A DNA stretch of 62,738 nucleotides, the filler included, from Nanobdellota archaeon (lineage in GTDB: Archaea > Nanobdellota > Nanobdellia > Woesearchaeales > CAZZGN01): assembly GCA_051819665.1 (NCBI GenBank). It is 8 parts of 8 records of this genome, joined end to end, with 100 filler letters (N's around TTAATTAATTAA, not from the genome) between each part and the next. Parts side by side here need not be neighbours in the genome. Positions count along the whole stretch, not along the records: positions 8,754 to 17,150 come from JBNJDG010000041.1; 7 more parts are not named here. The stretch is one strand, 5' to 3'. Of the stretch, positions 1 through 48,752 are shown piece after piece. Below the pieces are notes generated by a model. That model was not told where the DNA came from. It made no database searches and saw only the letters and a list, made by a program, of their open reading frames with translations. The position numbers and the translations under genes are program-made. Numbering within the stretch: position 1 is the stretch's first letter; every line of letters starts with the position of its first letter.

Positions 1-1134
1 TCCTTCCTCTTTAGCTTTCCTCAGGCGGTCCTCAGCATAATTATCACTATCCTTCTTATTAAAAACACCATGAGTGGCTGCGATCGAGACCTTCTTTGCT
101 CCTTTCTCCTTGAAGTTCTTTGCTGCATCTATAGCTGAACCACCGCTTGCGATAATGTCATCATAGACAACTACGTGCTTATCCCTGACATCACCCATGA
201 CATGAACCACTTCCGTTCCACCGTCTTTCTGGTCTCTCTCTTTGTTTATTATCCCGTAAAGACCAGATCCGAAGAGATCGGCTGCCTTAGAAGCTCTTGC
301 AGCACCTCCCGCGTCCGGTGTTGCAGGCATGATATTATCTCCATTATTCTCCATAAAATATGCTGTAAAGAGGGGCAAAGCTCCAAGATCATCAACCGGT
401 CCATTAAAATGGCCCTGGTTCTGGTTTGAATGAAGATCGCTTGTAACGATCCTCTCAAGCTTACCGTTAGAAGAATGGTCTAATAATGAGAAAGTCTTTT
501 CAGATGTAACAGGAGCTCTCGGAACATCCTTCCTGTCCTGTCTCTGGTTGATGAGATAAGGAGCATAGAGGATTATCTTTTCAGCACCCGCTCTGGATAA
601 GGAATCCAAGAGATTCTGCAGATCAGCAAAACCATCATTCACTGAGAATGAATCTGAATAAGGAGTGTTCTTTTCAGAGAGAGAATTATAAGCTTTTTTC
701 ATATCCTCCCAGGATTTATCTTTTGTCTCATTGATGAACCTATCAAAAGAGGGGAACTGATTGAAATTGAATGTATAGAAGAGATGTACGTTCTTACCGC
801 TTACATGCGCAGGACCGCTATTCTTTATCTCTCCGTCACCAAATATTTTCGGCCATGCATGAACCGGTTTTAATACATCCTTTATGATCGTGGAGAGACG
901 TTGGTTGAAACCGAGAAAATCGTATTGCGCTTTGATCCTGTCCTCATACTTATGGTTAAGATAGCTATGGAGCGAATCTACGACACCTTCAACAAACTCC
1001 TTTGAAGTTCCTCCCGAAATAATGCGCATATTCTCAAGATTATCTAGATCCCTCCTATCCTTGGAAATCAGATTAGCATCAATGTATCCATTACCAAGCT
1101 CGCTTCTGAAACCTTTCTCACCGTCTTCTGCCAT
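1..1134 (-). CDS. prs: Ribose-phosphate pyrophosphokinase (PRPP synthetase), 3' end runs off the window; absent from the ORF track
   Basis: Manual translation from ATG at 1134 is open to base 1: FGDGEI, PYLINQRQDRK, DLHSNQ, TPDAGGAARA, PRPP-binding motif VVVYDDIIASGGSAIDAA, AATHGVF; GGGGG SD-like sequence upstream. Confidence 0.9.
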   Translation of the reverse strand, partial: MAEDGEKGFRSELGNGYIDANLISKDRRDLDNLENMRIISGGTSKEFVEGVVDSLHSYLNHKYEDRIKAQYDFLGFNQRLSTIIKDVLKPVHAWPKIFGDGEIKNSGPAHVSGKNVHLFYTFNFNQFPSFDRFINETKDKSWEDMKKAYNSLSEKNTPYSDSFSVNDGFADLQNLLDSLSRAGAEKIILYAPYLINQRQDRKDVPRAPVTSEKTFSLLDHSSNGKLERIVTSDLHSNQNQGHFNGPVDDLGALPLFTAYFMENNGDNIMPATPDAGGAARASKAADLFGSGLYGIINKERDQKDGGTEVVHVMGDVRDKHVVVYDDIIASGGSAIDAAKNFKEKGAKKVSIAATHGVFNKKDSDNYAEDRLRKAKEEG

Positions 1135-8653: not shown

Positions 8654-8753
8654 NNNNNNNNNNNNNNNNNNNNNNNNNNNNNNNNNNNNNNNNNNNNTTA
8701 ATTAATTAANNNNNNNNNNNNNNNNNNNNNNNNNNNNNNNNNNNNNNNNNNNN
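8654..8753. other. Artificial contig spacer
   Basis: 44 N + TTAATTAATTAA (six-frame stop) + 44 N. Confidence 0.99.
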
Positions 8754-8946
8754 GAATCCCGGCCGGGGCATTAGTCCCATTATGCTGCCTTGCGCAGCAT
8801 ATAGTACACTGGTTGATATAGGCTGAAGTGCCTTATGTGGGAATCCCGGCCGGGGCATTAGTCCCATTATGCTGCCTTGCGCAGCATATAGTACACTGGT
8901 TGATATAGGCTGAAGTGCCTTATGTGGGAATCCCGGCCGGGGCATT
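8754..8946 (+). repeat. Tandem repeat of an 87-bp unit (2.2 identical copies), each starting with a tRNA 3'-end fragment and containing a hairpin
   Basis: GAATCCCGGCCGGGGCA at 8754, 8841 and 8928; internal TATGCTGC-cttgc-GCAGCATA inverted repeat. Confidence 0.92.
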
Positions 8947-8997
8947 TATTTGATGATTATCGTCATTCTTAAATAAAGAGCTTACTACCCACATATT

Positions 8998-9597
8998 ATG
9001 GTTAAGGTTGAGGAGATTGTAAATGATTATGAAGTTGTTCTCCTTGATACTAATGTTATTCTGAATTACGCCTATCCGGGTAAAGAGCAGAAGAGGCAGG
9101 TCCCGAAAGGTGAGAATGCCAAATCCTTCTCTTTCTGGAGGAAAGTACTGGAGGAGAACGGGAATATCTTCGTGCCTGAAAAGATCTATGAGGAGCTCTT
9201 TCCGGAAAAAAAGCTGAAGTTCACGAACAAGACCGTAACAAAATCATACAATAAACGGAAGAAAGATATGTTGAAAAACCTGAATATATTCAGTATGTCA
9301 GAGAAAGAGCTGGCCCTTTACCAGGAACTTTATGAGGAGATAGTCCCTTCTGATTTTAACTCTTTCACTACAGGTTCTTTACGGGAGAATACCTCGCTTG
9401 AAGACTATGATCTCCTGGTTTCAGGCTTAGTGAAGGCTGTGAATGATGTCCCTACTGCCATGATATCCAATGACCGGAATCTTTGTAAAAGATGGACAGA
9501 GATCAGGAAGAATGGGCAGAAAGATGCGCCTCTTGCATTCTACCAGAGATTATATGAGAATGTTTTCAAAGAGATGGATCCCTTCCACCAGTATTGA
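8998..9597 (+). CDS. PIN-like domain protein
   Basis: VLLDTNVIL, IYEEL, EDYDLL, MISNDRNL acidic PIN-type motif spacing. Confidence 0.65.
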   Translation: MVKVEEIVNDYEVVLLDTNVILNYAYPGKEQKRQVPKGENAKSFSFWRKVLEENGNIFVPEKIYEELFPEKKLKFTNKTVTKSYNKRKKDMLKNLNIFSMSEKELALYQELYEEIVPSDFNSFTTGSLRENTSLEDYDLLVSGLVKAVNDVPTAMISNDRNLCKRWTEIRKNGQKDAPLAFYQRLYENVFKEMDPFHQY

Positions 9598-9632
9598 ATT
9601 TTTAAGAAAGATTAATAAATGAAGGCTCTATT

Positions 9633-10544
9633 ATGACTCCAGGTGATAAGATGATCGTTCCCCTTGATGTACCTGAAGACATGAAAAAGGAATATACTGA
9701 TAATTATAATGAGCTTACACATTATACGGGCAGGCTTATGCTTTTTGCGGATGATCAGAGGATCGAGCATCTGAATTCGGATTTCCACGGTGAGCATATA
9801 AGCGAGGATGACGAGGATCCTGAACATCCTTTCAGAGTTGCCGGAAAGGCGAAGATTGGGGCAATGGCCGCTCAACTTGGTCTTATCTCAAGATACGGCA
9901 TGGATCACAAGGAAGTCCCTTACCTTGTGAAGCTGAATTCTAAGACCAACCTGATCAATAAGAACATAAGGGATCCTTTCAGCTCAACCTTAGTTGATGT
10001 TGAGCAGGTATATGAGTTCAAGAAGAGGACAGGCCTGAACATTTTAGGAGTAGGTTATACGCTCTACCTTGGTAGTGAGTATGAGCCTGCCATGCTGAGG
10101 GAGGCTTCGCAGATGATCCTCTCTGCTCACAGGCACGGCCTTGTTACTGTGTTATGGATATATCCTCGTGGTAAGGCAGTGAAGGCCGAGAAGGACCCTG
10201 ACATAATAGCCGGAGCTACGGGTGTTGCCGGATGTCTTGGCAGTGACTTTGTCAAGGTGAATTACCCTGAGAAGAAAGGGAAGAAATCAAAGGATGTATT
10301 CGGACAGGCAGTGAAGGCTGCCGGGAGGACAGGTGTCATATGCGCCGGAGGTTCTTCTACCTCACCAGCAAGGTTCCTCGAGAGGCTGAAGGAACAGATG
10401 GATGCCGGAGCGAGCGGTAATGCGACGGGAAGGAATATCCATCAGAAGAGTGATGAGGAAGCTGTGAGGTTCTGCAATGCGATATATGCGATAACTGTCG
10501 AGGGGAAGACAGTGGAGGAAGCTTATGCGATCTATAAAGGTTAG
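9633..10544 (+). CDS. fbaB: Class I (DhnA/FbaB-type) fructose-bisphosphate aldolase
   Basis: ADDQRIEH, LVKLNSKT, LWIYPRG, Schiff-base lysine in DFVKVNYP, AGGS, GRNIHQ. Confidence 0.9.
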   Translation: MTPGDKMIVPLDVPEDMKKEYTDNYNELTHYTGRLMLFADDQRIEHLNSDFHGEHISEDDEDPEHPFRVAGKAKIGAMAAQLGLISRYGMDHKEVPYLVKLNSKTNLINKNIRDPFSSTLVDVEQVYEFKKRTGLNILGVGYTLYLGSEYEPAMLREASQMILSAHRHGLVTVLWIYPRGKAVKAEKDPDIIAGATGVAGCLGSDFVKVNYPEKKGKKSKDVFGQAVKAAGRTGVICAGGSSTSPARFLERLKEQMDAGASGNATGRNIHQKSDEEAVRFCNAIYAITVEGKTVEEAYAIYKG

Positions 10545-10935
10545 TCTGTTGGTTTTTGTGATGCTCCTGGCTCTGCCCTTTACTTCAGGTTTCTGTGAAG
10601 ACCTTGAAGGTTACGGCGGAGTCGAGGTGCCGGGATTTATACCTTACAAGAACGAGGTCGTCGATGTATATCTCAATGATACCTTCGTTGCCCAGTCAGA
10701 GATAAATAACAGGGAAGTGGGCAATATCTCCTGTGAGAGCGAGAAAGAATCAACTCTTGACGTTCAGGTTAAGAACGCTTCAGTGATCGAGGATATCGCT
10801 GTTTCCGATTCTCCTTTAAGTGCTCTTGAGAAGGAGATAGGAGATGGTATAAAACTCGAGCCTAAGACGAGAAGCACTAAGATAAGGAATTTCCTTTTTA
10901 AGGTGGAGATGAAGGTAGCTTCCTGGTTCATCTAA
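10525..10935 (+). CDS. Hypothetical exported protein
   Basis: N-terminal signal-peptide-like hydrophobic stretch; overlaps the aldolase stop. Confidence 0.65.
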   Translation: MRSIKVSLLVFVMLLALPFTSGFCEDLEGYGGVEVPGFIPYKNEVVDVYLNDTFVAQSEINNREVGNISCESEKESTLDVQVKNASVIEDIAVSDSPLSALEKEIGDGIKLEPKTRSTKIRNFLFKVEMKVASWFI

Positions 10936-11405
10936 TCGAATTTATGATTAGAGAAGTTGAAATAATCCTCTACCTTTACATTTCCCTGATTTGAGTCTTT
11001 ATTTGAGCTACTGTTTTGTTGTTTTTCCTGGCTCTCCTGCTGCTGATTATCCTGAGCAGGCTCATCGCCGAAAGTGACCCTCGCTTTGTTCATCTTTGAT
11101 TTTATGTCCTCTACTTCGTTCCTGAGCTGGGTCATGTTCCTGTTATGATCCACATTGCTCGAGGTTTTCTCCTCGATCTTCTTATCCAGCTCGTTGATCT
11201 TCTCTTCGATCTTTTTCAGGACATTGTTCTGGAGGTAATCCACTTTCCTCTTAAGGAGCATCATCTCCTGGGGCTCTTCTTTCTGCTCTTCCTGTTTCTC
11301 TCTGGGCTTATTATCTGTCTCTTTCTTCTTATTATCCGACATTATGCTTTCCTTGTCAATGCCCATGTTCCTGAACTGTTTATTGAATTCGTTTCTGTCT
11401 ACCAT
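10932..11405 (-). CDS. Hypothetical coiled-coil protein
   Basis: Q/E/K-rich ORF with a TATA-like TTTATAAA upstream on the minus strand. Confidence 0.7.
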   Translation of the reverse strand: MVDRNEFNKQFRNMGIDKESIMSDNKKKETDNKPREKQEEQKEEPQEMMLLKRKVDYLQNNVLKKIEEKINELDKKIEEKTSSNVDHNRNMTQLRNEVEDIKSKMNKARVTFGDEPAQDNQQQESQEKQQNSSSNKDSNQGNVKVEDYFNFSNHKFD

Positions 11406-11498
11406 CTTGTCTTGCTTTCGAGAATTGTCTCTTTATAAATTTAATTATTCCTGAACAGACAGAAACAGTTTTATATCCGTTTTACTCATATAGTAGAT

Positions 11499-12125
11499 AT
11501 GGACTGGCTGGATGATGAGATCAGGGGAGCCGGAAGGGATCCCGGAGAGGTAACTGTGCTTGCGGTATCCAAGAAGAGGAGCCTTGATGAAGTAAGATCT
11601 GTAGTGCACGGAGGTATTGAAGCGGTAGGAGAGAGCAGGATCGATGAGGCTTACGATAAGCTCCCTCTGCTTTCAGGCATTAAGAAACATATGATCGGAC
11701 ATCTGCAGAGGAATAAGGTAAAGGATGCCCTTGAGCTTTTTGATGTCATAGAGAGCGTTGACTCACTGAAGCTTGCCCGTGAGATTGACAGGAAAGCGAG
11801 GATGAAGGGCATTGTTGCAGAGGTGTATTTCCAGATCAATATAGGGGAGGAGGACTCGAAGTATGGTGTCGGTCTTTCTGAAGCACAGGAGTTCTATTCG
11901 AAACTGCTTAGTCTTACTAATCTGAAAGTGACAGGCATCATGTGTATAGCTCCTTACCTTGAACCTGAAGGGACGAGGCCTTATTTCAGGAGGATGAAAG
12001 AGCTTTTTGATACTCTGCCTGTAAAGAACCTCTCGATGGGCATGAGCAATGATTATAGGGTTGCTTTAGAGGAAGGCTCTACCGAGATCAGGCTTGGAAG
12101 GAAGCTCTTCGGTGAAAGAAGATAA
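11499..12125 (+). CDS. yggS: PLP homeostasis protein (YggS/PLPBP)
   Basis: LAVSKK, HMIGHLQRNKV, SVDSLKLA, LSMGMSNDY, EGSTEIRLG. Confidence 0.95.
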   Translation: MDWLDDEIRGAGRDPGEVTVLAVSKKRSLDEVRSVVHGGIEAVGESRIDEAYDKLPLLSGIKKHMIGHLQRNKVKDALELFDVIESVDSLKLAREIDRKARMKGIVAEVYFQINIGEEDSKYGVGLSEAQEFYSKLLSLTNLKVTGIMCIAPYLEPEGTRPYFRRMKELFDTLPVKNLSMGMSNDYRVALEEGSTEIRLGRKLFGERR

Positions 12126-12126
12126 T

Positions 12127-12942
12127 ATGGATGGTCTTAAATTGACGGAAAGGCTTACTGTCCGGGACGAGGATAATATATCGAAGTATTTCAATGAGGT
12201 TAGGAATTATCCTCTCCTGAATCCTGATGAAGAGACCGATCTTGGCTGGAGAGCGAGGCATGGCGATGAAAGAGCGAGGGAGAAGCTGGTCCTTTCCAAT
12301 CTAAGATTTGTCATTTCTGTAGCTAAGCAATATAAGAGGAAAGGTATATCTTTTGCAGACCTTATCAATGAGGGGAATATTGGTCTTATCAAGGCTGCGG
12401 AAAGGTATGATGAGACAAAGGGTTTCAGGTTCATAAGCTATGCGGTCTGGTGGATAAGGCAGACGATGACCCAGTATATTGAGAGGGACACAAGGACCAT
12501 AAGAAGGCCTGTGAATATTGGGAGGAGAGTAAGGGAGCATAATAAGGAAAGGGAGAGGATGAGCCAGCATTATCAGTCTGAGGTGCCGGAAGATATTGTT
12601 TCAGCTGATTATGAGTTGAGGACAAGGTCGATTGATGAACAGATGGGTGATTCGGAAAAGACCTTCGGTGATTATCTTGAGGACCGGACTTTCGGTGACC
12701 CGGAGAGCAGGTTTAAGCATCAGTCTCTCAAAGAGTCGCTTAACTTCGCCCTGGATAAGCTCTCGGAGAAGAATGAGAAGTTAGCTTATGCTGTAAGGAA
12801 TTTTTATGGTATAGGCACTGAGAAATTGTCAAAGGATTCTATTGCTGAAGACCTCGGTATGAGCAGTGAGAGGGTGAGGCAGTATTTGAAGAAGGGAGAG
12901 AGGTTCCTTAAGGGTTTTGATGGCCTGAGAGAATATCTGTGA
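12127..12942 (+). CDS. RNA polymerase sigma-70 family factor, RpoD/SigA-like (copy 1)
   Basis: Region 1.2 NISKYFNEV; region 2 NLRFVISVAKQY...DLINEGNIGLIKAAERYDETKGFRFISYAVWWIRQ; region 4 HTH IAEDLGMSSERVRQ; ATG 1 nt after the yggS stop. Confidence 0.93.
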   Translation: MDGLKLTERLTVRDEDNISKYFNEVRNYPLLNPDEETDLGWRARHGDERAREKLVLSNLRFVISVAKQYKRKGISFADLINEGNIGLIKAAERYDETKGFRFISYAVWWIRQTMTQYIERDTRTIRRPVNIGRRVREHNKERERMSQHYQSEVPEDIVSADYELRTRSIDEQMGDSEKTFGDYLEDRTFGDPESRFKHQSLKESLNFALDKLSEKNEKLAYAVRNFYGIGTEKLSKDSIAEDLGMSSERVRQYLKKGERFLKGFDGLREYL

Positions 12943-12983
12943 AGTAGAAACTTTTTTAAACCAGAATCATATTCTTCCAGTGT

Positions 12984-14063
12984 ATGTTGTCTGTTGTCAT
13001 CCCTACGTTCAATGAACGGGAAGTTATCCTTGAGACTGTTTCTAAGCTCCACAGGGCTCTTAAGAACATTGGCAGTTATGAGATCATAGTCGTGGATGAC
13101 GATTCTCCTGATAAGACATGGAAGCTGGTCAGGGATAAGGCCAAGGAAGATCCCCGTCTCCGTCTGATACACAGGAAGAAGGATAAAGGGTTGAGCAGAG
13201 CTGTAGTAGAGGGCTTTTCCAGAGCGAAAGGTGAATACCTCCTCGTTATGGATGCTGACGGCCAGCACGATGAGACAAGGATCCCGGAGATGCTTTCTGT
13301 GGCGGAGCATGCTGATATAGTGGCCGGCAGTCGTTTTGCGAAAGGAGGAGGGGTCAGCGGCTGGTCAAAGAGCCGCCTTCTTATAAGCAGGACCTTCTCT
13401 ATGCTGTCAAGGCCCTTTATCAGGACAGGGATTACTGATCCCCTCTCCGGATTCTTCCTTGTGAAGAGGACTTTGTTCGAAAAGGTGAAGGACGAACTTG
13501 ACCTTCGCGGGTATAAGATCCTTCTCGCGATTATCTTTGCCGGTCAGAATAAGAAAAGTTTGAAGGTAAAGGAAGTCCCTTATGTATTCAGGCCCAGGGA
13601 ATTGGGCGAGAGCAAGGCGGATTACAGGGTGGCTGTTGACCTTATCTTCATGCTCGGGAAACAGGCGCTCAGGGCAAACAGGAAGTTCATCAAGTTCGCG
13701 CTGGTCGGGGCTTCCGGCACTTTAGTCAATTTCGGTCTTCTGATAGGGCTTACAGAATTGGCCGGGCTTTATTATCTCCTGTCTTCTGTGATTGCTGTGG
13801 AAGCTTCTATAATCTCTAATTTCCTCCTTAACAATTTCTGGACGTGGCGCAGCGGTAAGCATCGCAACAGATTCATGGTCAGGCTCTTCCGTTTCAATCT
13901 TGTCTCTTTGATTGCTCTATTATTGAATGTCTCCGTCCTGTTCTTCCTGACAGAGTACCTGAGTATGTGGTATGTGCTCGCTAATGTATTCGGGATACTT
14001 GCGGGCATGATCGTCAATTTCACAATAAACGACAGATGGACTTTCAGGAAAAATGATGCCTAA
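12984..14063 (+). CDS. GT2 polyprenol-phosphate glycosyltransferase (DPM1-like) fused to a GtrA domain
   Basis: SVVIPTFNE, VVDDDSPD, MDADGQH, GSRF, DPLSGFF, GESK; C-terminal four-TM GtrA domain (FIKFALVG...NDRWTF). Confidence 0.92.
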   Translation: MLSVVIPTFNEREVILETVSKLHRALKNIGSYEIIVVDDDSPDKTWKLVRDKAKEDPRLRLIHRKKDKGLSRAVVEGFSRAKGEYLLVMDADGQHDETRIPEMLSVAEHADIVAGSRFAKGGGVSGWSKSRLLISRTFSMLSRPFIRTGITDPLSGFFLVKRTLFEKVKDELDLRGYKILLAIIFAGQNKKSLKVKEVPYVFRPRELGESKADYRVAVDLIFMLGKQALRANRKFIKFALVGASGTLVNFGLLIGLTELAGLYYLLSSVIAVEASIISNFLLNNFWTWRSGKHRNRFMVRLFRFNLVSLIALLLNVSVLFFLTEYLSMWYVLANVFGILAGMIVNFTINDRWTFRKNDA

Positions 14064-15495
14064 AAATACAGATCCGGTAAGATTTTTACGTAAGAACCGC
14101 CGTCTCTTTGGCTTCTTGTTCATCCTGGCCGTGTTCGTGGTTGTGCTGAGCCTCCTTGCACAGGAATCCTCTTTCCTAAACTGGGATGAGCCTGTCTACC
14201 TTAGTAATGCGCGCTCTCATATCGATGATTCAAACTATACAGAGGATTTCAGGTTTCCCCTGCTCGAGTTTGTCATTGCAGGTATATGGTCTTTGTTCGG
14301 GGAGTCGGTTGCTCTCGCCAAGGCGGTCATGGTCTTGTTCTCCTCTCTCTCAGTCTATGCTATGTATCTTGTTTCGAAGGAGCTTTTTGATGATTCTCTT
14401 CCTGTACTGCTCTCCACTTTCCTTTTCTCGTTCTCTTCTGTGATGTTCATCTGGGGTTTCAGGATCTATACAGACATACCCGCTCTGGGGATGATGCTCT
14501 TCTCCTTGTATTTTTTCTTCAGGGGCCAGAGATCTTCAGGTTTGATGCCTGTATTCTTCTCAGGCGGTTTTGCGACACTGGCTTTCCTGTTCAGGTTCCC
14601 CGTCGCTTTATTTGTGCTGCCTCTCATCGTTTATTATCTCTATAAGAAGCATTTCAGGAGGTTGTTTTTCTTTTGCGCGGGAGCTTTCTCTTTCGCCCTT
14701 CCCTGGCTGGTCTATAATCTCGTGAATTATGGTAATCCTCTCTGGGACCTTTTTGCGCAGGGTTCGGCGGTGGCTGAGTATACGAGCTTCCAGTCCCCTT
14801 ATGTCCTTCTTTCAGAAGTTGTTTCCCAATTCTCGTTCGGTCTGCTTTTCATCCTAGCTGCTTTTTTCGCTTTCAGGCATGGCTGCAAACGTAAAGAGTA
14901 TTTCATGATGCTCTCTTTCCTGCTTATTCTGGAGTTCCTGCTTTACCTTTTCGTCGTAAAGCTTAAGCTGACACGGTATGTCCTTGTCCTTCTCCCTCTT
15001 ATAGTACTTCTTGAGGTGAAGGGTCTTGATTACCTCCGTTTCAGGCTGCGTGGGCTTAGTGGGGTGTTGTATAATTCTGCCATGGTTATCCTGTTGCTTT
15101 TATTGCTCGTACCTCTCTATCTCTCATCGGTTTCCTCATTGGCTTATGTTCAGGAGAAGATCGATTGTGAGAATGACGGGGCAATGGCCCGGTCGGTTGA
15201 TTATATCAGGAGAACGGTGCCTTCAGATAAGGTTGTCCTGTCAAATTTCTGGCCGTGGTTCGGGTATTATGGTAATCATAATGTTTCCAGTTTCTGGTTG
15301 TCGCCTGAGGTGCTTTTCACTGATGAAAACCTTTATTTTGAGAAGATAGACCCGGATAAGATCGTTATCTGTGATGATTACGGTCTTGAGGGTGAATATG
15401 ATTCTCTTGAGGAATATAGTGAGTTTGTTGACCCGGAGAAGGTCTTTGAGGACGACTGCGGGAAGACAGTAACTGTTTATGATGTCTCTTCATAG
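14053..15495 (+). CDS. GT-C fold membrane glycosyltransferase (PMT/ArnT-like)
   Basis: WDEPVY loop motif, many TM helices, C-terminal soluble domain. Confidence 0.8.
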   Translation: MMPKNTDPVRFLRKNRRLFGFLFILAVFVVVLSLLAQESSFLNWDEPVYLSNARSHIDDSNYTEDFRFPLLEFVIAGIWSLFGESVALAKAVMVLFSSLSVYAMYLVSKELFDDSLPVLLSTFLFSFSSVMFIWGFRIYTDIPALGMMLFSLYFFFRGQRSSGLMPVFFSGGFATLAFLFRFPVALFVLPLIVYYLYKKHFRRLFFFCAGAFSFALPWLVYNLVNYGNPLWDLFAQGSAVAEYTSFQSPYVLLSEVVSQFSFGLLFILAAFFAFRHGCKRKEYFMMLSFLLILEFLLYLFVVKLKLTRYVLVLLPLIVLLEVKGLDYLRFRLRGLSGVLYNSAMVILLLLLLVPLYLSSVSSLAYVQEKIDCENDGAMARSVDYIRRTVPSDKVVLSNFWPWFGYYGNHNVSSFWLSPEVLFTDENLYFEKIDPDKIVICDDYGLEGEYDSLEEYSEFVDPEKVFEDDCGKTVTVYDVSS

Positions 15496-15546
15496 TCTCT
15501 TTTATGAACAGTTAATTATTTATTCTTTGCTTAATACCCAGGCAGT

Positions 15547-16350
15547 ATGAGGTCTTTGAATATAACTAATAAGATCACTAAACGTGATGAGGATTCTATC
15601 AATAAATTCTTCAGGGATATTGAAGGATATGAGATGCTGTCTCCTGAAGAAGAGACCGGCCTTGCCAGGAGAGCGAGGGAAGGTGAGAGAGAAGCCAGGG
15701 ATAAGCTGGTCCTTCATAATCAGAGGTTCGTGGTTTCAGTGGCCAAGCAGTACGAGGACAAGAATTCTTCACTGCCTGATCTTATCAATGAGGGTAATAA
15801 AGGCCTGATCAAGGCTGCAGAGAAGTATGATGAGAGAAAGGGTTTCAAGTTCATAACCTATGCGGTCTGGTGGATAAGACAGTCGATGATCAGATACAAG
15901 GCAGATTCTTCTCCTTTAATAAGGCTTCCCTATAAGAAGGCTCAGGACAGTATAAGCAACAGGAAAGAAAATGAGGAGAACTCTCAGAAATACCAGATGG
16001 ATATGTCAGAGCGTTTCAGGTATGATTATAGTATAAAATCTCTTGATGACAGGCTTCCCGGTTCAGAGAATCCCTATATGGCTCTTGTTGAGAACAGGAA
16101 TGCAGAGTCACCGGATGAGGGGCTTAACAGGGAATTTCTTAAAGGGGCGATTGAGAAATGCCTCAGCGGGCTTCCGGCGAGGACTGCAGACATAATTAAA
16201 CAACATTATGGTATGGAGGGACATCCGAAATCGTTTTCTACTATAGGTTTTGAGAAGAACATGACAAGGGAGAGGATACGCCAGCTCCATAATGACGGTA
16301 TGATGAAGCTGAAGAGAAGATACGGTAATATCCTGGGATCTTACCTCTGA
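15547..16350 (+). CDS. RNA polymerase sigma-70 family factor, RpoD/SigA-like (copy 2)
   Basis: N-terminus MRSLNITNKITKRD; RFVVSVAKQY...LPDLINEGNKGLIKAAEKYDERKGFKFITYAVWWIRQ; region 4 NMTRERIRQ. Confidence 0.93.
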   Translation: MRSLNITNKITKRDEDSINKFFRDIEGYEMLSPEEETGLARRAREGEREARDKLVLHNQRFVVSVAKQYEDKNSSLPDLINEGNKGLIKAAEKYDERKGFKFITYAVWWIRQSMIRYKADSSPLIRLPYKKAQDSISNRKENEENSQKYQMDMSERFRYDYSIKSLDDRLPGSENPYMALVENRNAESPDEGLNREFLKGAIEKCLSGLPARTADIIKQHYGMEGHPKSFSTIGFEKNMTRERIRQLHNDGMMKLKRRYGNILGSYL

Positions 16351-16838
16351 AGAGCGTCATAGAAAGCTTCGTATCTCTTTATCCTGTTCTCCAGCTTTTT
16401 CTCTAGTTTAGGCAGGGACAGCAGGCCGGCCAGGCGGCCGGTGAGAGTGCCCATGGCTGTAAAGGTTCCTATGCCAAGGTATTTGTACACATTATCCATA
16501 GTGGTCATCTGCCCTTCCATATCATTGGCAAGCTCGTTGAAAAAATAATATCCTATGGCAGCACCTGCGATTGTTCCGGCGATGCATGCGTAATCGACCA
16601 TCTTTCCCTTCAGTTTCTCCTTTTTCCTTGTCTCTGAGATCATCTTTTCAGTGATGTCTTTCAGGTTCTCTCTTGTCCTTTCGTCTTCGGCATAGATATT
16701 CAGTCTTTTCAGATTGTCTGCAGATTTGGTGGCCTTGTTTATCGCTTTCCTGTAATGCTTCTCTTTATCACTGGATCCCGCTCTGATTATATAATTTCCT
16801 TCGTTTTTCTTTTTTATGGCTATGGAATTCTCTTCCAT
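16341..16838 (-). CDS. Hypothetical membrane protein
   Basis: Two Gly/Ala-rich hydrophobic segments; TATA-like sequence upstream. Confidence 0.65.
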   Translation of the reverse strand: MEENSIAIKKKNEGNYIIRAGSSDKEKHYRKAINKATKSADNLKRLNIYAEDERTRENLKDITEKMISETRKKEKLKGKMVDYACIAGTIAGAAIGYYFFNELANDMEGQMTTMDNVYKYLGIGTFTAMGTLTGRLAGLLSLPKLEKKLENRIKRYEAFYDALQR

Positions 16839-17098
16839 GGTGGGATTTTTGTAGGGATATATTTTTATAAAATTTTTGTTCTGATAAAGTGGTGAATTAT
16901 GATTTATATATTTAAATGGTTATTTTTTGATATGATTAATATGGATTAACAAAGGGGAAGATTTATATAATATCTTTATTTACCCTGTTAATAACATCTT
17001 AAGTTGGGGGGCATAAATGGTAAAGAGCATACACTTCACAGGATCGGTTTCTATGTGCTCCTATTTCAAACAAAAACAAAAAGGTGGGGGTATAAACT

Positions 17099-17150
17099 AT
17101 GAAAAAAATAACTAGTCTGATAATTATTTCGATCGTCTTTGCGATGATGA
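17099..17150 (+). CDS. 5' fragment of an exported protein, truncated by contig end
   Basis: GGTGGGGG SD, then MKKITSLIIISIVFAMM signal-peptide-like start. Confidence 0.55.
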
Positions 17151-17250
17151 NNNNNNNNNNNNNNNNNNNNNNNNNNNNNNNNNNNNNNNNNNNNTTAATT
17201 AATTAANNNNNNNNNNNNNNNNNNNNNNNNNNNNNNNNNNNNNNNNNNNN
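17151..17250. other. Artificial contig spacer
   Basis: N/TTAATTAATTAA/N. Confidence 0.99.
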
Positions 17251-17652
17251 CTTCAGGTCCTTATTGTTCACAAGGCCTCTGATGAGGTCCTCATGGCTCG
17301 GAGGCATGAAATCACTTTCACAGTCTGGATGGGCATCGAGCATTATCAATCCCGAATGTTTGCTTTTTTCGGAGAAAGCTTTCACACATGGATATGTTAT
17401 AGAATGATCTCCTCCGAGGATGATGCATCTCTCATTCTCTTTTATCTTTTCATATATGTTCCTGTTCGTCTTCTCAAAATCATCTTCAGCTATCTCCACA
17501 GAATCCTGACTGAATTGTGTATTCTCGCCGTCTTCTGTAAGGAATAATGATCCGAGCTCTTCTATTATCTTATCAGGTGCTTTACTGCACCCTGTGTTCT
17601 TGTTCATGTTTCCCGCTTCCTGGGGTATGCTGATAAGCTTTGTCTTTGCCAT
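17251..17652 (-). CDS. Arginase/agmatinase (ureohydrolase) family protein, 3'-truncated
   Basis: LGGDHSITY and LDAHPD metal motifs. Confidence 0.9.
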
Positions 17653-25302: not shown

Positions 25303-25402
25303 NNNNNNNNNNNNNNNNNNNNNNNNNNNNNNNNNNNNNNNNNNNNTTAATTAATTAANNNNNNNNNNNNNNNNNNNNNNNNNNNNNNNNNNNNNNNNNN
25401 NN
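25303..25402. other. Artificial contig spacer
   Basis: N/TTAATTAATTAA/N. Confidence 0.99.
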
Positions 25403-28415: not shown

Positions 28416-28874
28416 ATGAGATGCCCCTACTGTTCCCATGATACCACCAGAGTAATAGATAGCAGAGACACCACTGAAGATATAACAAGAAGGAGAAGGG
28501 AATGTGATAAATGTAGTAAACGTTTCACAACTTATGAACGTATAGAGATGGTGGATCTCTTCATCATAAAGAAAGATGGCAGCAGAGAACTGTTCGACAG
28601 GGAAAAGATAAGAAGAGGCATCCTCAAGGCGAGTGAGAAGAGAGACATTTCCATAAGCAAGATAGAAGAAGTTATTGACAAGGTCGAGACAGACCTGAGG
28701 AGGAAGGATTCTACTGAGATAAACAGCAAAGAGGTTGGCAAGGCAGTCATAAAACACCTGAAAAGACTCGACAATGTAGTCTATATAAGGTTCGCTTCTG
28801 TCTACAGGGAATTCGCAGATATTGAATCCTTCGAGAAAGAACTGAGGAAGCTACTCAAAAGGCATAGAAGATAA
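28416..28874 (+). CDS. nrdR: Transcriptional repressor NrdR
   Basis: MRCPYC...VIDSR...RRRRECDKCSKRFTTYE, ATP-cone KKDGSRELFDREKI, YIRFASVYREF. Confidence 0.97.
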   Translation: MRCPYCSHDTTRVIDSRDTTEDITRRRRECDKCSKRFTTYERIEMVDLFIIKKDGSRELFDREKIRRGILKASEKRDISISKIEEVIDKVETDLRRKDSTEINSKEVGKAVIKHLKRLDNVVYIRFASVYREFADIESFEKELRKLLKRHRR

Positions 28875-29654: not shown

Positions 29655-30776
29655 TCAGATCTTGAAACCGAAGAAACTCTTCTGGGGAGCCACATCCTCC
29701 CCCATCTCTTCAGCAAGCTGCTCGATTATCTCTCTTTCCTTCTTCGAAAGCCTCTTAGGCACCTGGACTATAATCTTCACGAGCTGATCCCCTCTTCCTG
29801 AGCCATGAAGCATAGGCAATCCTTTATCTTTCATCCTCATGACAGTATGGCTCTGGGTCCCGGGAGGCACTTTCAGCTCTGCTTTTCCCGTGATTGTTGG
29901 AACAGATATTGTAGCTCCCAATGCAGCCTGTACGAAAGAGATGGGTACTTTACAGATAAGATCGGATCCTTCCCTTTCAAAGATATCGTGTTCCCTGACG
30001 AAAATCCTCACATAAAGGTTGCCTGAAGGACCTCCGTTCGGTCCGGCTTCTCCTTCGCCTTCCAGCCTGAGGGTATTACCATGCTCAACACCTGCAGGGA
30101 TATCAATCTCTATCTTCCTCTTCTTCTTGACCCTTCCTTCTCCGGCGCAGGCACTGCATTTGTCCTTTATGACCTCACCCCTGCCATTACAGGAAGAACA
30201 GGGCCCTGTGCTCTGGAAAATACCGAAAGGGGTCCTCTGAGCCCTTTTCTCAACACCACTGCCCTTACAGGTCGAACATGTAACTATAGAATCATCATCC
30301 TTTGCACCGCTGCCCTTACATTTATCACAGGTCTCATGCTTTTCAACATTAAGCTCCTTCTTAGTGCCGTGATAGACATCCTCAAGATCAACCTCAACAT
30401 CTGTCTGGAGATCTGCTCCGCCTCTTTTCCTTCTTCTCCTCGAACCCCCTCCGAACGGATTTCCGCCGAAGAAGCTCTCGAAGATATCATCGAAATCGAA
30501 ACCGAATCCGAAATCACTGAAATCCTGGGAAGAGAATCCTCCGCCCTGGGCCTGCTGTCCGGTTGTCCCGAACTGGTCATACTGCTGTCTCTTCTTATCA
30601 TCAGCCAGCACGGATGCTGCCTCATTAACTTCCTTGAACTTGTTAGCAGCCTCCTTGTCGCCTTTGTTAAGGTCTGGATGATACTTCTTGGCCAGTTTCT
30701 TATAAGCCTTCCTTATCTCCTCCTTAGAAGCGTTCCTGTCAACTCCGAGTATATCATAATAATCCTTATCTGCCAT
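29655..30776 (-). CDS. dnaJ: Chaperone DnaJ
   Basis: J domain with HPD, G/F region, four CxxCxGxG repeats. Confidence 0.98.
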
Positions 30777-31434
30777 TTTCCTCTGCCTCTAACCTTTCTA
30801 CTAGCTCTTCAGGTCCGAAATCCAGTTTATTAAAAATTTCCCTTTCAAGCCCATAAAACTTATCATCGATCTCCTTTATCTTCTCGCTGCTGTACTGATC
30901 GTAATACCTGTTATCCTTATACCTCTCATGGCCATCACGGAATCTTTCCTGGAGAGAGACTATCTTATCATGCTTGACCCTCTTATCGGCATAACATACA
31001 AGCTTCTCTTCCCAGTTATCAAGGGAATTCACACCCTCCATCTCATGATATCCGTGTTTCCTCACTACTTGCGCAAGCTCAGGATATTTCTCCTGTAAGA
31101 CCCTGTATGCAGCCACTTCATGTGAAAGGCCACCGTACTTTCTCTTCAGCTCAATCCACTTCATCCTGTCCTTCTTGGATATTACATTCGTCTGATTGCT
31201 GTTCTTCGGTATGAATATGTTCCCTGTAGGTATCTCGACTATCTTCAGCATATCATGAAGTATGGATGCCCTGTCAACCAGCTCTTTCCTTACCTCCTCG
31301 CCTTTCTCTTCAAGCTTCCCGGCCAGGAACATGGCTACCCTGTTCACCTGGATACTATGCTCTATGATATTCTGGGGTACCCTGTAACCTACTGTAAGGA
31401 GATACTGGCTCTGCTCTCTTGAAGGGAGTTCCAT
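30766..31434 (-). CDS. HD-domain phosphohydrolase
   Basis: [34 protein letters not shown]. Confidence 0.88.
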
Positions 31435-31455
31435 ATTAAAAAAAAAGAAGGAAAT

Positions 31456-33366
31456 TCATTCCTTCTTATCGTCTTTCTTCTCTTCCTTGTAGTCAGCATC
31501 AACTACGTCTTCGCCATCCTTCTTGCCGGATGAGTCTCCTGAAGACTGCTCACCACCCTCTGAAGACTGCTGCTGACCACCTGCCTGTTGTCCCTGGCCC
31601 TGTTGCTGCTGCTTGGCCTGTTCCTCAGAGACTTTCTGGTACATCTCCGAAGAGGCTTCCTGGACCTTGTTATTGACTTCATCAAGCTTCTTCCTGATCG
31701 CCTCGACATCCTTGTCTTTCGGCTCCAGAAGTTTCTTGAGCTCATCAACGCCTTTCTTGATCTCGTCAAGCTTGCTCTTATCGACCTTACCTTCCATCTC
31801 CTTGAAAAGCTTTTCGGTCGAGTAAACAAGGCCTTCCGCCTCATTTATCGTCTCTATCTCCTTCTGTTTATTCTTGTCCTCTTCGGCGTGTTTCTCTGCC
31901 TCTTTCTTCATCCTCTCCACTTCCTCTTCAGAGAGATTGGTAGAGGATGTTATCTTTATGCTCTGCTCCTTGCCTGTTCCCTTATCCTTGGCACTTACAT
32001 GTACGATGCCGTTAGCATCTATATCGAAAGTCACCTCGATCTGAGGGACTCCTCTCGGAGCAGGCGGGATACCGACAAGATCGAAACGACCAAGGGTCTT
32101 ATTGTCAGCAGCCATAGTCCTCTCACCCTGGAGAACATGGATGCTCACAGCCTGCTGATTATCAGCTGCTGTCGAGAAGACCTGCGATTTTTGCGTGGGG
32201 ATAGTAGTATTCTTCTCGATGAGCTTTGTCATTACACCACCAAGAGTCTCTATACCAAGACTGAGAGGTGTAACATCGAGAAGCAGAACATCCTTAACAT
32301 CACCGCCGAGGATTCCTCCCTGGATAGCTGCTCCTATTGCTACAGCCTCATCAGGGCTTACTGACTTATCCCCTTCTTTGCCGGTTATATCCTTCACAAG
32401 ATTCCTTACTGCAGGGATCCTGGTCGAACCACCCACAAGGATCACCTTGTCTATGTCATTATTCGAATAACCGGCCTCCTTTATGGCCTTCTCGCATGGA
32501 CTTCTCAGCTTACTGATTATATCTGAGATAAGATCCTCGAACTTCGCCCTTGAAAGGTCCATGTTAAGGTGCTTAGGACCATTCTTATCAGCCGTGACGA
32601 AGGGTATGTTGATGTTGGTGCTCTTCTTTGTAGAGAGCTCGATCTTAGCCTTCTCAGCAGCCTCTTTGAGCCTCTGTAGCGAGGTATTGTCCTCTCTGAG
32701 GTCAACACCCTGCTCTTTCTTGAACTCCTCTGCAAGCCAGTCCATGACCGCCTGATCCACATCGTCACCACCAAGGTGGTTATCACCTGAAGTGGCCTTA
32801 ACTTCAAAGACACCGTCTCCCAGCTCAAGTACCGAAGCATCGAAAGTACCTCCACCAAAGTCGAAGACTAGAATCTTCTGGTCATTACCCTTGTCAAGAC
32901 CATAAGCCAGTGAAGCTGCAGTCGGCTCGTTGATGATCCTTTTCACGTTTAGGCCGGCAATCTTTCCTGCATCTTTAGTTGCCTGCCTCTGTGAATCCTC
33001 GAAATAAGCAGGCACAGTGATCACCGCATCGGTCACTTCCTGACCCAGGTAACTCTCAGCATCCTTCTTCAATTTCTGGAGGATCATTGCGGAGATCTCC
33101 TGAGGAGTGTAATCCTTATCCTTCATCTTCTCCTTGTGATCCTCACCCATATGTCTCTTTATGCTCTTGACCGTGTTATCAGGGTTGGTTATTGTCTGGT
33201 TCTTTGCAACCCTTCCTACAAGCCTCTCATTGTCATCGTTTATAGCTACAACGCTCGGCGTTGTCCTTTCACCTTCAGCATTCGGTATGATGACAGGCTT
33301 TCCGCCTTCCATTACAGATACTGCTGAAAATGTGGTTCCTAAATCGATTCCTATTATCTTTCCCAT
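31456..33366 (-). CDS. dnaK: Chaperone DnaK (Hsp70)
   Basis: [49 protein letters not shown]. Confidence 0.99.
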
Positions 33367-33416: not shown

Positions 33417-33516
33417 NNNNNNNNNNNNNNNNNNNNNNNNNNNNNNNNNNNNNNNNNNNNTTAATTAATTAANNNNNNNNNNNNNNNNNNNNNNNNNNNN
33501 NNNNNNNNNNNNNNNN
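33417..33516. other. Artificial contig spacer
   Basis: N/TTAATTAATTAA/N. Confidence 0.99.
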
Positions 33517-41195: not shown

Positions 41196-41295
41196 NNNNN
41201 NNNNNNNNNNNNNNNNNNNNNNNNNNNNNNNNNNNNNNNTTAATTAATTAANNNNNNNNNNNNNNNNNNNNNNNNNNNNNNNNNNNNNNNNNNNN
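41196..41295. other. Artificial contig spacer
   Basis: N/TTAATTAATTAA/N. Confidence 0.99.
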
Positions 41296-48652: not shown

Positions 48653-48752
48653 NNNNNNNNNNNNNNNNNNNNNNNNNNNNNNNNNNNNNNNNNNNNTTAA
48701 TTAATTAANNNNNNNNNNNNNNNNNNNNNNNNNNNNNNNNNNNNNNNNNNNN
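48653..48752. other. Artificial contig spacer
   Basis: N/TTAATTAATTAA/N. Confidence 0.99.

Follow-up and report, generated by a model that had tools for sequence, protein, structure and literature searches.

Two genes of the sigma-70 family, here termed sigma-1 and sigma-2, are located on contig C41 (8,397 bp, positions 8754-17150) of the window, which is the whole stretch of 62,738 nt analysed and consists of eight contigs of one metagenome-assembled bin, joined by spacers of N44, 12 nt and N44. The bin represents a DPANN-like archaeon with a genome of 1.12 Mb and is 96% complete at an estimated contamination of 4.45%. Both reading frames noted in a first-pass annotation are present at its coordinates, on the plus strand, and Pfam searches recover regions 1.2 and 2 in both proteins and region 4 in sigma-2.

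Features around the sigma-70 genes of contig C41 (positions count along the window)
Feature	Position	Strand	Evidence and remarks
TATA-like box TTTATATCC	11469..11477	+	22-30 nt 5' of yggS ATG; putative archaeal promoter for yggS and sigma-1
yggS, PLP-homeostasis protein family	11499..12125	+	TIGR00044 146.9 bits (cut-off 106.25); Pfam Ala_racemase_N
sigma-1, 271 aa, sigma-70 family	12127..12942	+	Pfam; TIGR02937 100.8 bits (cut-off 42.9); AF2; Foldseek
TATA-like box TTTTTTAAA	12951..12959	+	25-33 nt 5' of GT2 ATG
GT2 fused to GtrA/DPMS membrane domain	12984..14063	+	PF00535 130.7 bits; PF04138 102.3 bits
PMT_2/GT-C-type membrane glycosyltransferase	14053..15495	+	PF13231 43.9 bits; 11-nt overlap with GT2 gene
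TATA-like box TTAATTATTTAT	15513..15524	+	23-34 nt 5' of sigma-2 ATG
sigma-2, 267 aa, sigma-70 family	15547..16350	+	Pfam r2 61.8, r4 38.5, r1.2 29.1 bits
Orphan 165-aa protein, hydrophobic C-terminal half	16341..16838	-	Convergent with sigma-2; 10-nt overlap at sigma-2 3' end

A single nucleotide separates the stop codon of yggS from the ATG of sigma-1, and the two genes are predicted to be translationally coupled behind their TATA-like box, as had been proposed. Alternative starts of sigma-1 are a GTG at 12112 and a TTG at 12094. Gene order and Pfam matches likewise agree with the earlier statement that the sigma genes flank the GT2-GtrA and GT-C genes, both of which lie between them; full-length homologues of the GT-C protein (32-37% identity) occur in 3 of 60 same-order relatives. 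The orphan protein gave no match in Pfam, PHROG or PADLOC and is present in none of 60 same-order relatives; its gene adjoins sigma-2 but need not belong with the sigma genes.

Sigma-1 comprises regions 1.2, 2.1-2.4 and 4.1-4.2, and of region 3.0 it has a single helix. Its Pfam matches to Sigma70_r2 (68.7 bits, cut-off 24) and r1.2 (33.3, cut-off 22) are above threshold, whereas those to r4 (19.9, cut-off 24.1) and r3 (19.1, cut-off 25.3) are below. In the AF2 model (mean pLDDT 84.3), residues 12-121 (sigma-2 domain) and 192-262 (sigma-4 domain) are predicted with confidence, and the top matches in a Foldseek search are sigma-S and sigma-A. In sigma-2, regions 1.2, 2 and 4 all exceed their Pfam cut-offs and r3 gives no match; among PDB sequences it finds SigA and RpoS (E 4e-36). 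The -35 recognition helix of sigma-2 is complete (TRERIRQ) and YAVWWIRQ is retained, while sigma-1 has S in place of R584 and keeps the remaining -35 residues. The motifs quoted earlier (DLINEGN.GLIKAA, YAVWWIRQ, ERV/IRQ) are all present. The description of the proteins as near-full-length goes too far, as region 3 is cut down.

A third paralogue, sigma-3, was detected outside the window on the minus strand of contig C4 (G000:C4, L003:1048-1866), a contig of 55 kb which also carries TYW1, archaeal S15, archaeal RecJ, an RPA-like SSB and GlyRS. None of the three frames is interrupted (267-272 aa), and their mutual identity is 42-45%. In a sigma phylogeny the three make up a clade of their own (SH-aLRT 85), within which sigma-1 and sigma-3 pair as sisters (86), and these two have a 3-aa insertion in common. 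The segment P453-S506 measures 38-43 aa in the three paralogues, whereas 39 of 42 relatives have 51-57 aa there; from region 3.1, 11-16 residues are absent, the predicted sigma-3 domain is reduced to a single helix, and the finger region is weakly conserved. Regions 1.2 and 2 are nearly identical to the bacterial consensus, and most residues for core binding, melting and -35 recognition are retained; sigma-3 lacks W434, Q437 and five -35 recognition residues but retains helix 2.2. The earlier notion of duplicated genes gains a third copy, and the common clade and the shared deletion in region 3 show a single origin with later duplication within the lineage.

The nearest named relatives of the sigma proteins are primary sigma factors of Bacteroidota (35-44% identity), and both the named best matches and the signature residues agree with the likeness noted in the first-pass annotation. 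Among the best 120 matches listed, all named ones are Bacteroidota RpoD/SigA proteins of about 287 aa; apart from the protein of the window itself and a match of half length, identity is 39-44% over 96-100% of the query. Sigma-2 likewise has Bacteroidota RpoD/SigA as best matches (40-44%), and the best 80 species-representative loci are mostly from Bacteroidota or the FCB group. Every score against the equivalog models of NCBIfam is far below cut-off. With Bacteroidota RpoD/SigA the proteins share the length class, the lack of region 1.1, N-termini (MDGLKLT, MRSLNIT) which mirror the MRQLKIT start of sigma-A, and near-identical regions 1.2 to 2.4 including the signature residues F386, N406, I413 and F425, common to all three. 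They differ from them in an identity of only 35-44%, in the missing residues of region 3.1, and in a host without bacterial core enzyme but with archaeal promoters and codon use. The comparison traces the genes to a single sigma factor gained by horizontal transfer, of the short type lacking region 1.1 which serves Bacteroidota/FCB bacteria as primary sigma. Group 3/4 (alternative, ECF) sigma factors resemble them in effective architecture, in which a linker joins the sigma-2 and sigma-4 domains and the sigma-3 domain is small or missing, and the TIGR02937 superfamily cut-off is passed; unlike these, the present proteins possess region 1.2 and a group-1-type region 2.3/2.4 (YAVWWIRQ), and their best matches are primary sigmas, not ECF. 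The sigma-like protein MzaA of the MZA anti-phage system matches partially in the sigma-2 region (NCBIfam 148-149 bits, PADLOC 76-103), and membership was rejected: NCBIfam requires 800 bits, the match spans only about 100 residues where the model has about 700 positions, and no other defence genes are nearby. In archaea, TFB recruits the RNA polymerase (RNAP) to promoters and aids DNA opening and so is the functional analogue of sigma in the host. Archaeal TFB and eukaryotic TFIIB have no detectable sequence relationship to the sigma proteins, and TFB is encoded in the genome; the sigma genes, which come from bacteria, were added to it and do not replace it.

The codon use of the sigma genes, described earlier as rich in AGG and ATA like that of their neighbours, equals that of the genome for AGG/AGA and ATA. 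AGR codons make up 93% of arginine codons in the sigma genes and 91% in the genome, compared with 33% in 68 Bacteroidota sigA genes, and the RSCU correlation with the genome (0.848) is within what gene triplets drawn at random give (5th percentile 0.826). TATA-like boxes are located 22-34 nt 5' of all three promoter-proximal ATGs (yggS-sigma-1, sigma-2 and sigma-3). The genome-wide peak of TTTAWA in 983 upstream regions is in the same place, at -40 to -21 from the ATG (116+142 hits; every other 10-nt bin has 8-52), and the Bacteroidota -7 motif (TAnnTTTG) and TTGACA show no positional enrichment upstream of genes. The boxes of the three sigma genes are thus of archaeal style and at leaderless distance. 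By these sequence features the genes are native to the archaeon and ameliorated, as the term "domesticated" had implied.

Sigma genes were found in 27 of 61 same-order genomes, closed ones included, and the homologues called for as a check do exist, with conserved functional residues. Across 51 archaeal sigma modules, taken from 38 genomes of the order, the residues kept, with the number of modules, are D403 (46), E407 (42), N409 (42), Y430 (45), W433 (43), W434 (43) and Q437 (41) as well as, for -35 recognition, R584 (34), E585 (38), R588 (39) and Q589 (38), a constraint that appears typical of working sigmas. In relatives, the genes adjoin those for exosome, deoxyhypusine synthase, archaeal S15, diphthamide synthase and prefoldin, also in a one-contig genome, and the family is evidently chromosomal there. 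Elsewhere in the order there are longer forms that include regions 1.1 and 3, forms resembling ECF factors, and fusions in open frames of up to 1,763 aa; library representatives of such fused proteins reach 2,571 and 7,852 aa. The best sigma match outside this genome is 46% identical, compared with 56-80% for Rpo1N over comparable lengths, and no conserved gene neighbour of the family was found in same-order relatives. This patchy spread, fast evolution and lack of a conserved neighbour fit an accessory role, possibly a polymerase-free one. The locus had been ranked as the best candidate for a new system, but sigma-70-class genes in DPANN archaea, especially Woesearchaeota, have already been published, in genomes which also encode TBP, TFB and TFE (Castelle 2021, PMC8204110; fam00359); that study states that mis-binning was excluded and that no anti-sigma was found. 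Going by this published description, fam00359 and the present genes have in common an archaeal genome, frequent occurrence in relatives and no conserved partner, whereas the lineage-specific triplet, the short Bacteroidota sigma-A type and the truncated sigma-3 domain distinguish the latter. New here is a further instance of the published genes, as a lineage-specific triplet.

On the whole we favour, at a little short of an even chance, a native, horizontally acquired and triplicated sigma factor, with sigma-1 and sigma-2 as accessory factors on the archaeal RNAP. Most of the sigma-3 domain was lost before the triplication gave rise to sigma-1 and sigma-2 on C41 and sigma-3 on C4. The genome encodes TBP, TFB and a single archaeal Rpo1N, and the check for a bacterial core enzyme found no alpha-CTD in the 96%-complete bin. 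It is possible, although we would not count on it, that sigma-1 and sigma-2 are accessory sigma-like transcription factors inside the archaeal cell. They would recognise a -35-like duplex element with the sigma-4 helix-turn-helix and hold a -10-like non-template strand with the sigma-2 domain, while conserved helix 2.2 would mediate association with the archaeal RNAP, the only polymerase present; they would add to TBP/TFB and not replace them. Sigma-3, as a DNA-blind paralogue, could compete for the same docking site. The beta' clamp-helix positions which we take to be critical for sigma-70 binding (R275, E295, A302) are I263, L283 and H290 in the archaeal Rpo1N. Among 30 same-order genomes, of which 17 have sigma and 13 lack it, the clamp coiled-coil hardly varies and shows no adaptation to sigma, and helix 2.2 is still Bacteroidota-like without change toward a new partner. 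These clamp differences and the absent co-adaptation would count against docking to the archaeal RNAP, and the lack of a bacterial-type promoter signal upstream of genes would also weigh against the favoured reading.

The unadapted clamp would suit stand-alone regulators, in which the sigma-4 helix-turn-helix, possibly with the sigma-2 domain, binds DNA without docking to RNAP, like bacterial-type archaeal transcription factors. Such regulators, for example NrdR, are already employed by this genome, and the patchy distribution, fast evolution, lost sigma-3 domain, weakly conserved finger and fusion of relatives' modules into much longer proteins point the same way. We nevertheless consider this unlikely: a duplex binder needs no exposed helix 2.2 residues, yet D403, E407 and N409 are kept in 42-46 of 51 modules, and the strand-capturing aromatics Y430, W433 and W434, which would be superfluous, in 43-45. 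Moreover, sigma factors of the primary type have little affinity for promoter DNA unless joined to core enzyme. Bacteroidota-like helix 2.2 and melting residues in a genome without bacterial polymerase, next to a clamp not adapted to sigma, could also indicate an effector or decoy which is delivered to a bacterial partner or neighbour, binds its core via the bacterial interface and redirects or blocks host transcription. DPANN archaea are generally regarded as living attached to other cells, and nuclear-encoded plastid sigma factors are a precedent for a sigma encoded apart from its polymerase. This is improbable, however, with no signal peptide or export feature apparent in the sigma proteins, whose N-termini mirror the sigma-A start; hosts of cultivated DPANN are, to our knowledge, archaea and not bacteria, and a poor holoenzyme is expected because the sigma-3 domain and finger are truncated and one of the three paralogues is degenerate.

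That C41 is a mis-binned Bacteroidota or phage contig foreign to the archaeon is very improbable. It is only 8.4 kb long, carries no universal archaeal marker in Pfam searches and overlaps no other bin contig at its ends, the contamination estimate leaves room for foreign contigs, and the best matches of its aldolase (63-67%) mix Methanosarcina with bacteria and are taxonomically not diagnostic. The earlier designation as an archaeal contig is right for the bin, in which other window contigs carry the archaeal markers deoxyhypusine synthase, TYW3, RtcB and RuBisCO, which were probably its basis, but several contigs are joined and C41 itself has none. Against mis-binning, genuine sigma-A proteins of Bacteroidota resemble one another much more closely than the 35-44% found here, the promoters are archaeal TATA boxes, and PHROG and PADLOC searches found no phage or defence context around the C41 sigma genes. 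The tetranucleotide correlation of C41 with the rest of the bin, proposed as a check of its origin, is 0.972 and typical for its size. Together with the codon fit, the location of sigma-1's sister sigma-3 on a marker-rich archaeal contig and the closed genomes of relatives with such genes, this largely refutes mis-binning. Relics of an old transfer, slowly decaying and non-functional or partly functional, are quite improbable as well. The residues lost from sigma-3, the truncated region 3 of all three proteins and the lack of a close orthologue would be in keeping with decay, but the frames have stayed intact despite their divergence, regions 1.2 and 2 are nearly at the bacterial consensus, amelioration of codon use is complete and every gene has retained a TATA box. 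The same-family genome without a sigma match says little because it is 82% complete and also lacks matches to the aldolase and GT-C of C41. Contigs from RNA libraries, which may contain DNA, cover sigma-2 (15499-16272) in two of four salt-lake libraries, all from one study, and give a weak hint of expression; one of them has a frameshifting 14-nt gap inside sigma-2, as a relic might.

Both open reading frames that the first-pass annotation had read as sigma-70 genes are real. They encode proteins of 271 aa (sigma-1) and 267 aa (sigma-2), and a third copy, sigma-3, lies outside the window (see table). Membership in the sigma-70 family was tested with the Pfam models PF04542, PF00140, PF04545 and PF04539 as well as NCBIfam TIGR02937. 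All three proteins passed the superfamily model TIGR02937 (100.8, 88.6 and 81.4 bits; cut-off 42.9) and Sigma70 region 2 (PF04542; 68.7 bits for sigma-1, 61.8 for sigma-2 and 58.2 for sigma-3; cut-off 24), and the cut-off of region 1.2 was passed by sigma-1 and sigma-2. Region 4, the helix-turn-helix for the -35 element, scored above its cut-off of 24.1 in sigma-2 (38.5) and below it in sigma-1 (19.9), and was not matched in sigma-3; region 3 fell just under its cut-off in sigma-1 and was not matched in sigma-2. The RpoD/SigA equivalog and subfamily cut-offs (354-572 bits) were not reached, the best RpoD-type scores being 145-168 bits, and sigma-1 and sigma-2 stayed far under every NCBIfam equivalog cut-off for RpoD, RpoS or RpoH. 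The best solved relatives in a PDB sequence search were SigA and RpoS chains (E about 4e-36). Membership in MzaA of the MZA anti-phage system was rejected, with 148.9, 148.0 and 106.3 bits against an NCBIfam cut-off of 800; the PADLOC matches span only about 100 residues, and the neighbours of the sigma genes are without defence match. A phage or defence origin was likewise rejected, as the searches gave generic sigma matches, two marginal matches to phage-regulator families and the partial MzaA match only.

Coordinates of the sigma genes and of other features (positions in the window unless a genome, contig or locus is named)
Feature	Position	Strand	Remark
Artificial joint	8654-8753		N spacer
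Artificial joint	17151-17250		N spacer
Artificial joint	25303-25402		N spacer
Artificial joint	33417-33516		N spacer
Artificial joint	41196-41295		N spacer
Artificial joint	48653-48752		N spacer
Artificial joint	55943-56042		N spacer
Contig C41	8754-17150		8,397 bp
Aldolase	9633-10544		C41
sigma-1	12127-12942	+	C41
sigma-2	15547-16350	+	C41
sigma-3	G000:C4, L003:1048-1866	-	third copy, from whole-genome scan; C4 = 55 kb
RNA-contig cover of sigma-2	15499-16272		C41
Gap in one RNA contig	15636-15649		14 nt missing, inside sigma-2
Repeated contig end	1-99		C40 start = C12 end
Repeated contig end	17251-17349		C42 start = C35 end
Repeated contig end	25204-25302		C42 end matches C36
PRPP-synthetase-like gene	1-1134		C40
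NrdR	28416-28874		C43
DnaK-DnaJ pair	29655-33366		C43
RuBisCO large-subunit homologue	61425-62723		C48
Sigma tandem of genome G039	L026 (G039:C3:14500-23500)		287, 297, 371 and 684 aa

The source genome (G000) comprises 1.12 Mb in 64 contigs and is 96% complete with 4.45% contamination. Contrary to the single contig assumed in the first-pass annotation, the window joins eight contigs (C40-C44, C46-C48) through spacers of 44 N, a 12-nt linker and 44 N; sigma-1 and sigma-2 do share one of them, C41. Because the window is a concatenation, synteny over the joints is artificial and ORFs entering them, such as 17203-17652, are cut. The archaeal hallmark genes of the window (deoxyhypusine synthase, RtcB, TYW3, RNase HII and RuBisCO) sit on contigs other than C41, so the archaeal nature of C41 itself needed to be shown. 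C41 carries no universal archaeal marker, and its ends show no overlap with any other contig of the bin. Elsewhere in the window some contig ends are repeated on other contigs; these repeats, each about 99 nt, resemble overlaps of the assembly graph, and C41 has none.

C41 almost certainly belongs to the archaeon. Among the taxonomic checks proposed in the first-pass annotation were tetranucleotide composition and the best matches of the neighbouring genes. The former agreed with the bin, the profile of C41 correlating with the rest at 0.972, which is ordinary for its size. The latter was of less use: the aldolase gene of C41 (NCBIfam PRK06852, 491 bits, cut-off 420) has orthologues of 52-62% identity in 9 genomes of the order, and its best matches overall (63-67%) mix unlabelled, Methanosarcina and bacterial proteins of several phyla, so it is not diagnostic. 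This pattern suggests that the aldolase family may move between domains. AGA and AGG account for 93% of the arginine codons in the trio of sigma genes and 91% in the genome, compared with 33% in 68 sigA genes of Bacteroidota, and ATA accounts for 51% of the isoleucine codons in the trio, 54% in the genome and 18% in Bacteroidota sigA; the codon profile of the trio lies inside the range of random gene triplets from G000. In addition, the contig of sigma-3 also carries TYW1, archaeal S15, archaeal RecJ, an RPA-like SSB and GlyRS.

For residue numbering, the three proteins were aligned to sigma-70 of E. coli, with the functional roles of the numbered residues taken, as we understand them, from the literature. 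The core-binding helix 2.2 (D403, E407, N409) is intact in all three, and the melting and -10 residues F427, Y430, W433, W434, R436 and Q437 are present in sigma-1 and sigma-2. The entire -35 recognition helix (T583, R584, E585, R586, R588, Q589) is retained in sigma-2, and sigma-1 has the substitution R584S there. Sigma-3 carries W434N and Q437A and has also lost R584, E585, R586, R588 and Q589. As judged from the alignment, sigma-1 and sigma-2 have mostly kept the predicted core-RNAP-binding and promoter residues of a bacterial sigma. The segment P453-S506 measures 41, 38 and 43 aa in the trio versus 51-57 aa in 39 of 42 other aligned proteins. In an AlphaFold2 model of sigma-1 (45-row alignment, mean pLDDT 84.3), region 1.2 and the sigma-2 domain (residues 12-121) are predicted confidently. 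So is the sigma-4 fold (192-262), despite the Pfam region 4 score below cut-off. In place of the sigma-3 domain the model has only one long helix, at 129-149, and a helical turn of four residues at 155-158, and the linker 159-191 is disordered. The top Foldseek matches of this model were sigma-S and sigma-A chains from holoenzymes. Group 1 primary sigma factors, including the Bacteroidota type, differ from the G000 proteins in that their three-helix sigma-3 domain is complete, and their partner is the bacterial core enzyme of their own genome, an enzyme that the scan of G000 did not find.

Within the same order, 27 of 61 genomes (one per family, G000 counted) contain a Sigma70_r2 match. With sigma-1 as query, matches were strong (E at most 1e-20) in 66 of the 401 genomes searched in the order, or in 60 of 395 once six genomes flagged as unpublished are set aside. 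The best match of sigma-1 outside G000 shows 46% identity, and at this distance of the closest relative synonymous sites are saturated for dN/dS. The only other genome of the family gave no sigma match, which says little since that genome is 82% complete and the aldolase and GT-C of C41 are also unmatched there. Genes of relatives adjoin archaeal markers: genome G039 has four tandem sigma genes beside an exosome RNase PH subunit and deoxyhypusine synthase, in G017, a genome in one contig, the neighbour is archaeal S15; in G019 there are diphthamide synthase plus a RIO kinase, and in G050 prefoldin. Mis-binning therefore cannot explain the family. The two longest G039 sigmas also match region 1.1, one of them under Pfam's cut-off, and sigma-1-like modules were seen inside giant proteins (P0127, 7,852 aa; P0165, 2,571 aa; an open frame of 1,763 aa on G113:C5). 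No conserved neighbour or anti-sigma candidate was found among 37 loci of relatives, with 150 of 168 ORFs scanned, and the convergent membrane ORF next to sigma-2 is an orphan, seen in 0 of 60 relatives.

Residue retention was counted over 51 archaeal sigma modules, de-duplicated and drawn from 38 genomes, with the loci of unpublished genomes left out. In helix 2.2, D403 is kept in 46, E407 in 42 and N409 in 42 of the 51 modules; the corresponding numbers are 45 for Y430, 43 each for W433 and W434, 41 for Q437, 34 for R584, 38 for E585, 39 for R588 and 38 for Q589. At the sequence level, this is the pattern expected from selection on a working sigma.

The sigma phylogeny proposed in the first-pass annotation was computed as a quick maximum-likelihood tree of 102 rows. 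A related-locus search had returned no relative with a single-protein query and 80 loci with an alignment query; the rows consisted of 31 sigma modules of this archaeal order including the G000 trio, 16 of the 80 named loci (every fifth), and the 55 best-scoring of 140 unlabelled library representatives, the genome's own being dropped. Many rows were long-branched. The trio is recovered as a group (SH-aLRT 85) in which sigma-1 pairs with sigma-3 (86), both supports being moderate. It is nested in a supported clade (96) to which five further archaeal proteins and every named protein of Bacteroidota or Balneolota belong. Most other archaeal sigmas, among them longer forms that have regions 1.1 and 3, lie outside that clade, which suggests several acquisitions within the order. 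Among the best 120 matches listed for sigma-2, each named row is a Bacteroidota RpoD/SigA of about 287 aa without region 1.1, at 39-44% identity over 96-100% of the query; the exceptions to these ranges are the protein of the window itself and one match of half length. For sigma-1, most of the best 80 species-representative loci come from Bacteroidota or the FCB group, at 35-41% identity, with a few MAG titles naming other phyla. Sigma-1 and sigma-3 have in common a 3-residue insertion in region 4.1, and the Bacteroidota signature residues F386, N406, I413 and F425 are found in all three proteins. These independent characters, together with the short P453-S506 segment, agree with a single origin. 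Only 3 of 10 looked-up clusters of the nearest unlabelled library proteins had named members, none of them archaeal; the donor is placed only as "Bacteroidota/FCB-type". It is well supported that the trio represents ameliorated, archaeal-promoter-driven genes from one sigma-A of this type; in that ancestor most of the sigma-3 domain was lost before the triplication.

The order yggS, sigma-1, GT2-GtrA, PMT_2/GT-C protein and sigma-2 is as the first-pass annotation had described it, and the ATG of sigma-1 follows 1 nt past the yggS stop. TATA-like boxes precede the ATGs of yggS, GT2, sigma-2 and sigma-3 by 22-34 nt. The true start of sigma-3 is likely an ATG 3 nt inside the called TTG, and its own TATA box lies 23-31 nt upstream. 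TTTAWA peaks at the same distance genome-wide: its matches number 116 at -40 to -31 and 142 at -30 to -21 in 983 upstream regions, compared with 8-52 in other bins. A search for TAnnTTTG, TTGACA and TATAAT upstream of G000 genes gave a positional peak only at the TATA-box position; this is a crude search, run with presumed motifs. RNA data were contigs from four salt-lake runs of one study (X1-X4). They cover sigma-2 (see table) and also the aldolase, both glycosyltransferase genes and the yggS/sigma-1 junction on C41, and the body of sigma-1 (12132-12942) had no RNA-contig cover in the four runs. Since such libraries can contain DNA, they give a weak hint of expression only. In one X1 contig (depth about 8), 14 nt of sigma-2 are missing. 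Such a gap would cause a frameshift; strain variation or faulty assembly could account for it.

Besides TBP and TFB, G000 has only one Rpb1-type gene; its 882-aa frame is typical for archaeal Rpo1N and shares 80% identity with that of the same-family archaeon. The check for a bacterial polymerase thus returned one archaeal-type Rpb1_1 match, and no bacterial alpha C-terminal domain was found in the 96% complete bin. The coiled-coil of archaeal Rpo1N (250-297) aligns gap-free to beta' 262-309 of E. coli and has I, L and H in G000 where beta' has R275, E295 and A302, positions which we take to be critical for sigma-70 binding. Among the best 30 of 60 same-order genomes with a match, 17 sigma-bearing and 13 sigma-lacking, the coiled-coil is essentially invariant. 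Co-adaptation of the clamp was therefore rejected and the polymerase appears unadapted to sigma; helix 2.2 of the sigmas is likewise not shifted from the bacterial consensus. A complex prediction of sigma-1 1-135 with Rpo1N 1-360, both as alignments, scored 0.04 against a mark of 0.32 and so counts neither for nor against docking.

Because exposed residues for core binding and strand capture are retained across the archaeal family, and because the cell has no polymerase besides the archaeal RNAP, we tentatively favour an accessory sigma-like factor that would work with the archaeal transcription machinery, with sigma-3 as a would-be DNA-blind competitor. That the clamp helix is unadapted speaks against simple docking. 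The same observation keeps alive the idea of a stand-alone DNA-binding regulator, which we regard as somewhat unlikely, and that of an effector on the polymerase of a bacterial partner, which is very unlikely. That the genes are partial relics is about as unlikely as the effector, for the residue retention over 51 modules is hard to square with neutral decay, and mis-binning of the G000 genes is barely credible given codon use, tetranucleotides and TATA boxes that fit the genome and a sister gene on a contig with archaeal markers.

Sigma-1 and sigma-2 could be working initiation factors of a hybrid system, which we consider unlikely. In a docking version, the two proteins would sit with helix 2.2 on the clamp coiled-coil of the archaeal polymerase and open dedicated promoters alongside or instead of TFB/TFE; in a hand-over version, a bacterial partner cell would receive both proteins and have its polymerase reprogrammed. 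If true, either version would be the first example of a bacterial sigma factor that bridges the divide between bacterial and archaeal transcription machinery.

In textbooks, sigma factors and TBP/TFB mark the two transcription systems of prokaryotes. Sigma factors in archaea were reportedly described by Rinke et al. 2013. Sigma-70 genes in DPANN have been published and are most prevalent in Woesearchaeota; in that report mis-binning was ruled out, anti-sigma factors were not found and the mechanism was called unclear (Castelle et al. 2021, PMC8204110). As in the DPANN genomes with their family fam00359, the sigma-70-class genes of G000 stand in a genome that also has TBP and TFB. The literature raises, without settling, the question why many DPANN archaea keep their sigma genes intact in the absence of a bacterial polymerase (PMC8204110). 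The trio of C41 and C4 does not answer it and instead provides a compact test set from one genome, in which sigma-2 has all DNA-reading residues, sigma-1 is nearly complete, and sigma-3, as a natural "DNA-blind" variant, keeps only the core-binding helix. Docking models must face two facts, a bacterial-like helix 2.2 and an archaeal clamp helix that is invariant with or without sigma. The locus adds a three-member paralogue set of Bacteroidota type, a truncated sigma-3 domain, a DNA-blind copy and the clamp-helix invariance.

Further bacterial-type regulatory and chaperone genes in the same archaeal bin are the NrdR repressor (zinc ribbon plus ATP-cone) and the DnaK-DnaJ pair, both on C43. The window also holds a RuBisCO large-subunit homologue and a PRPP-synthetase-like gene. 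A nucleotide-salvage RuBisCO pathway has been reported in DPANN, and the two genes fit with it.
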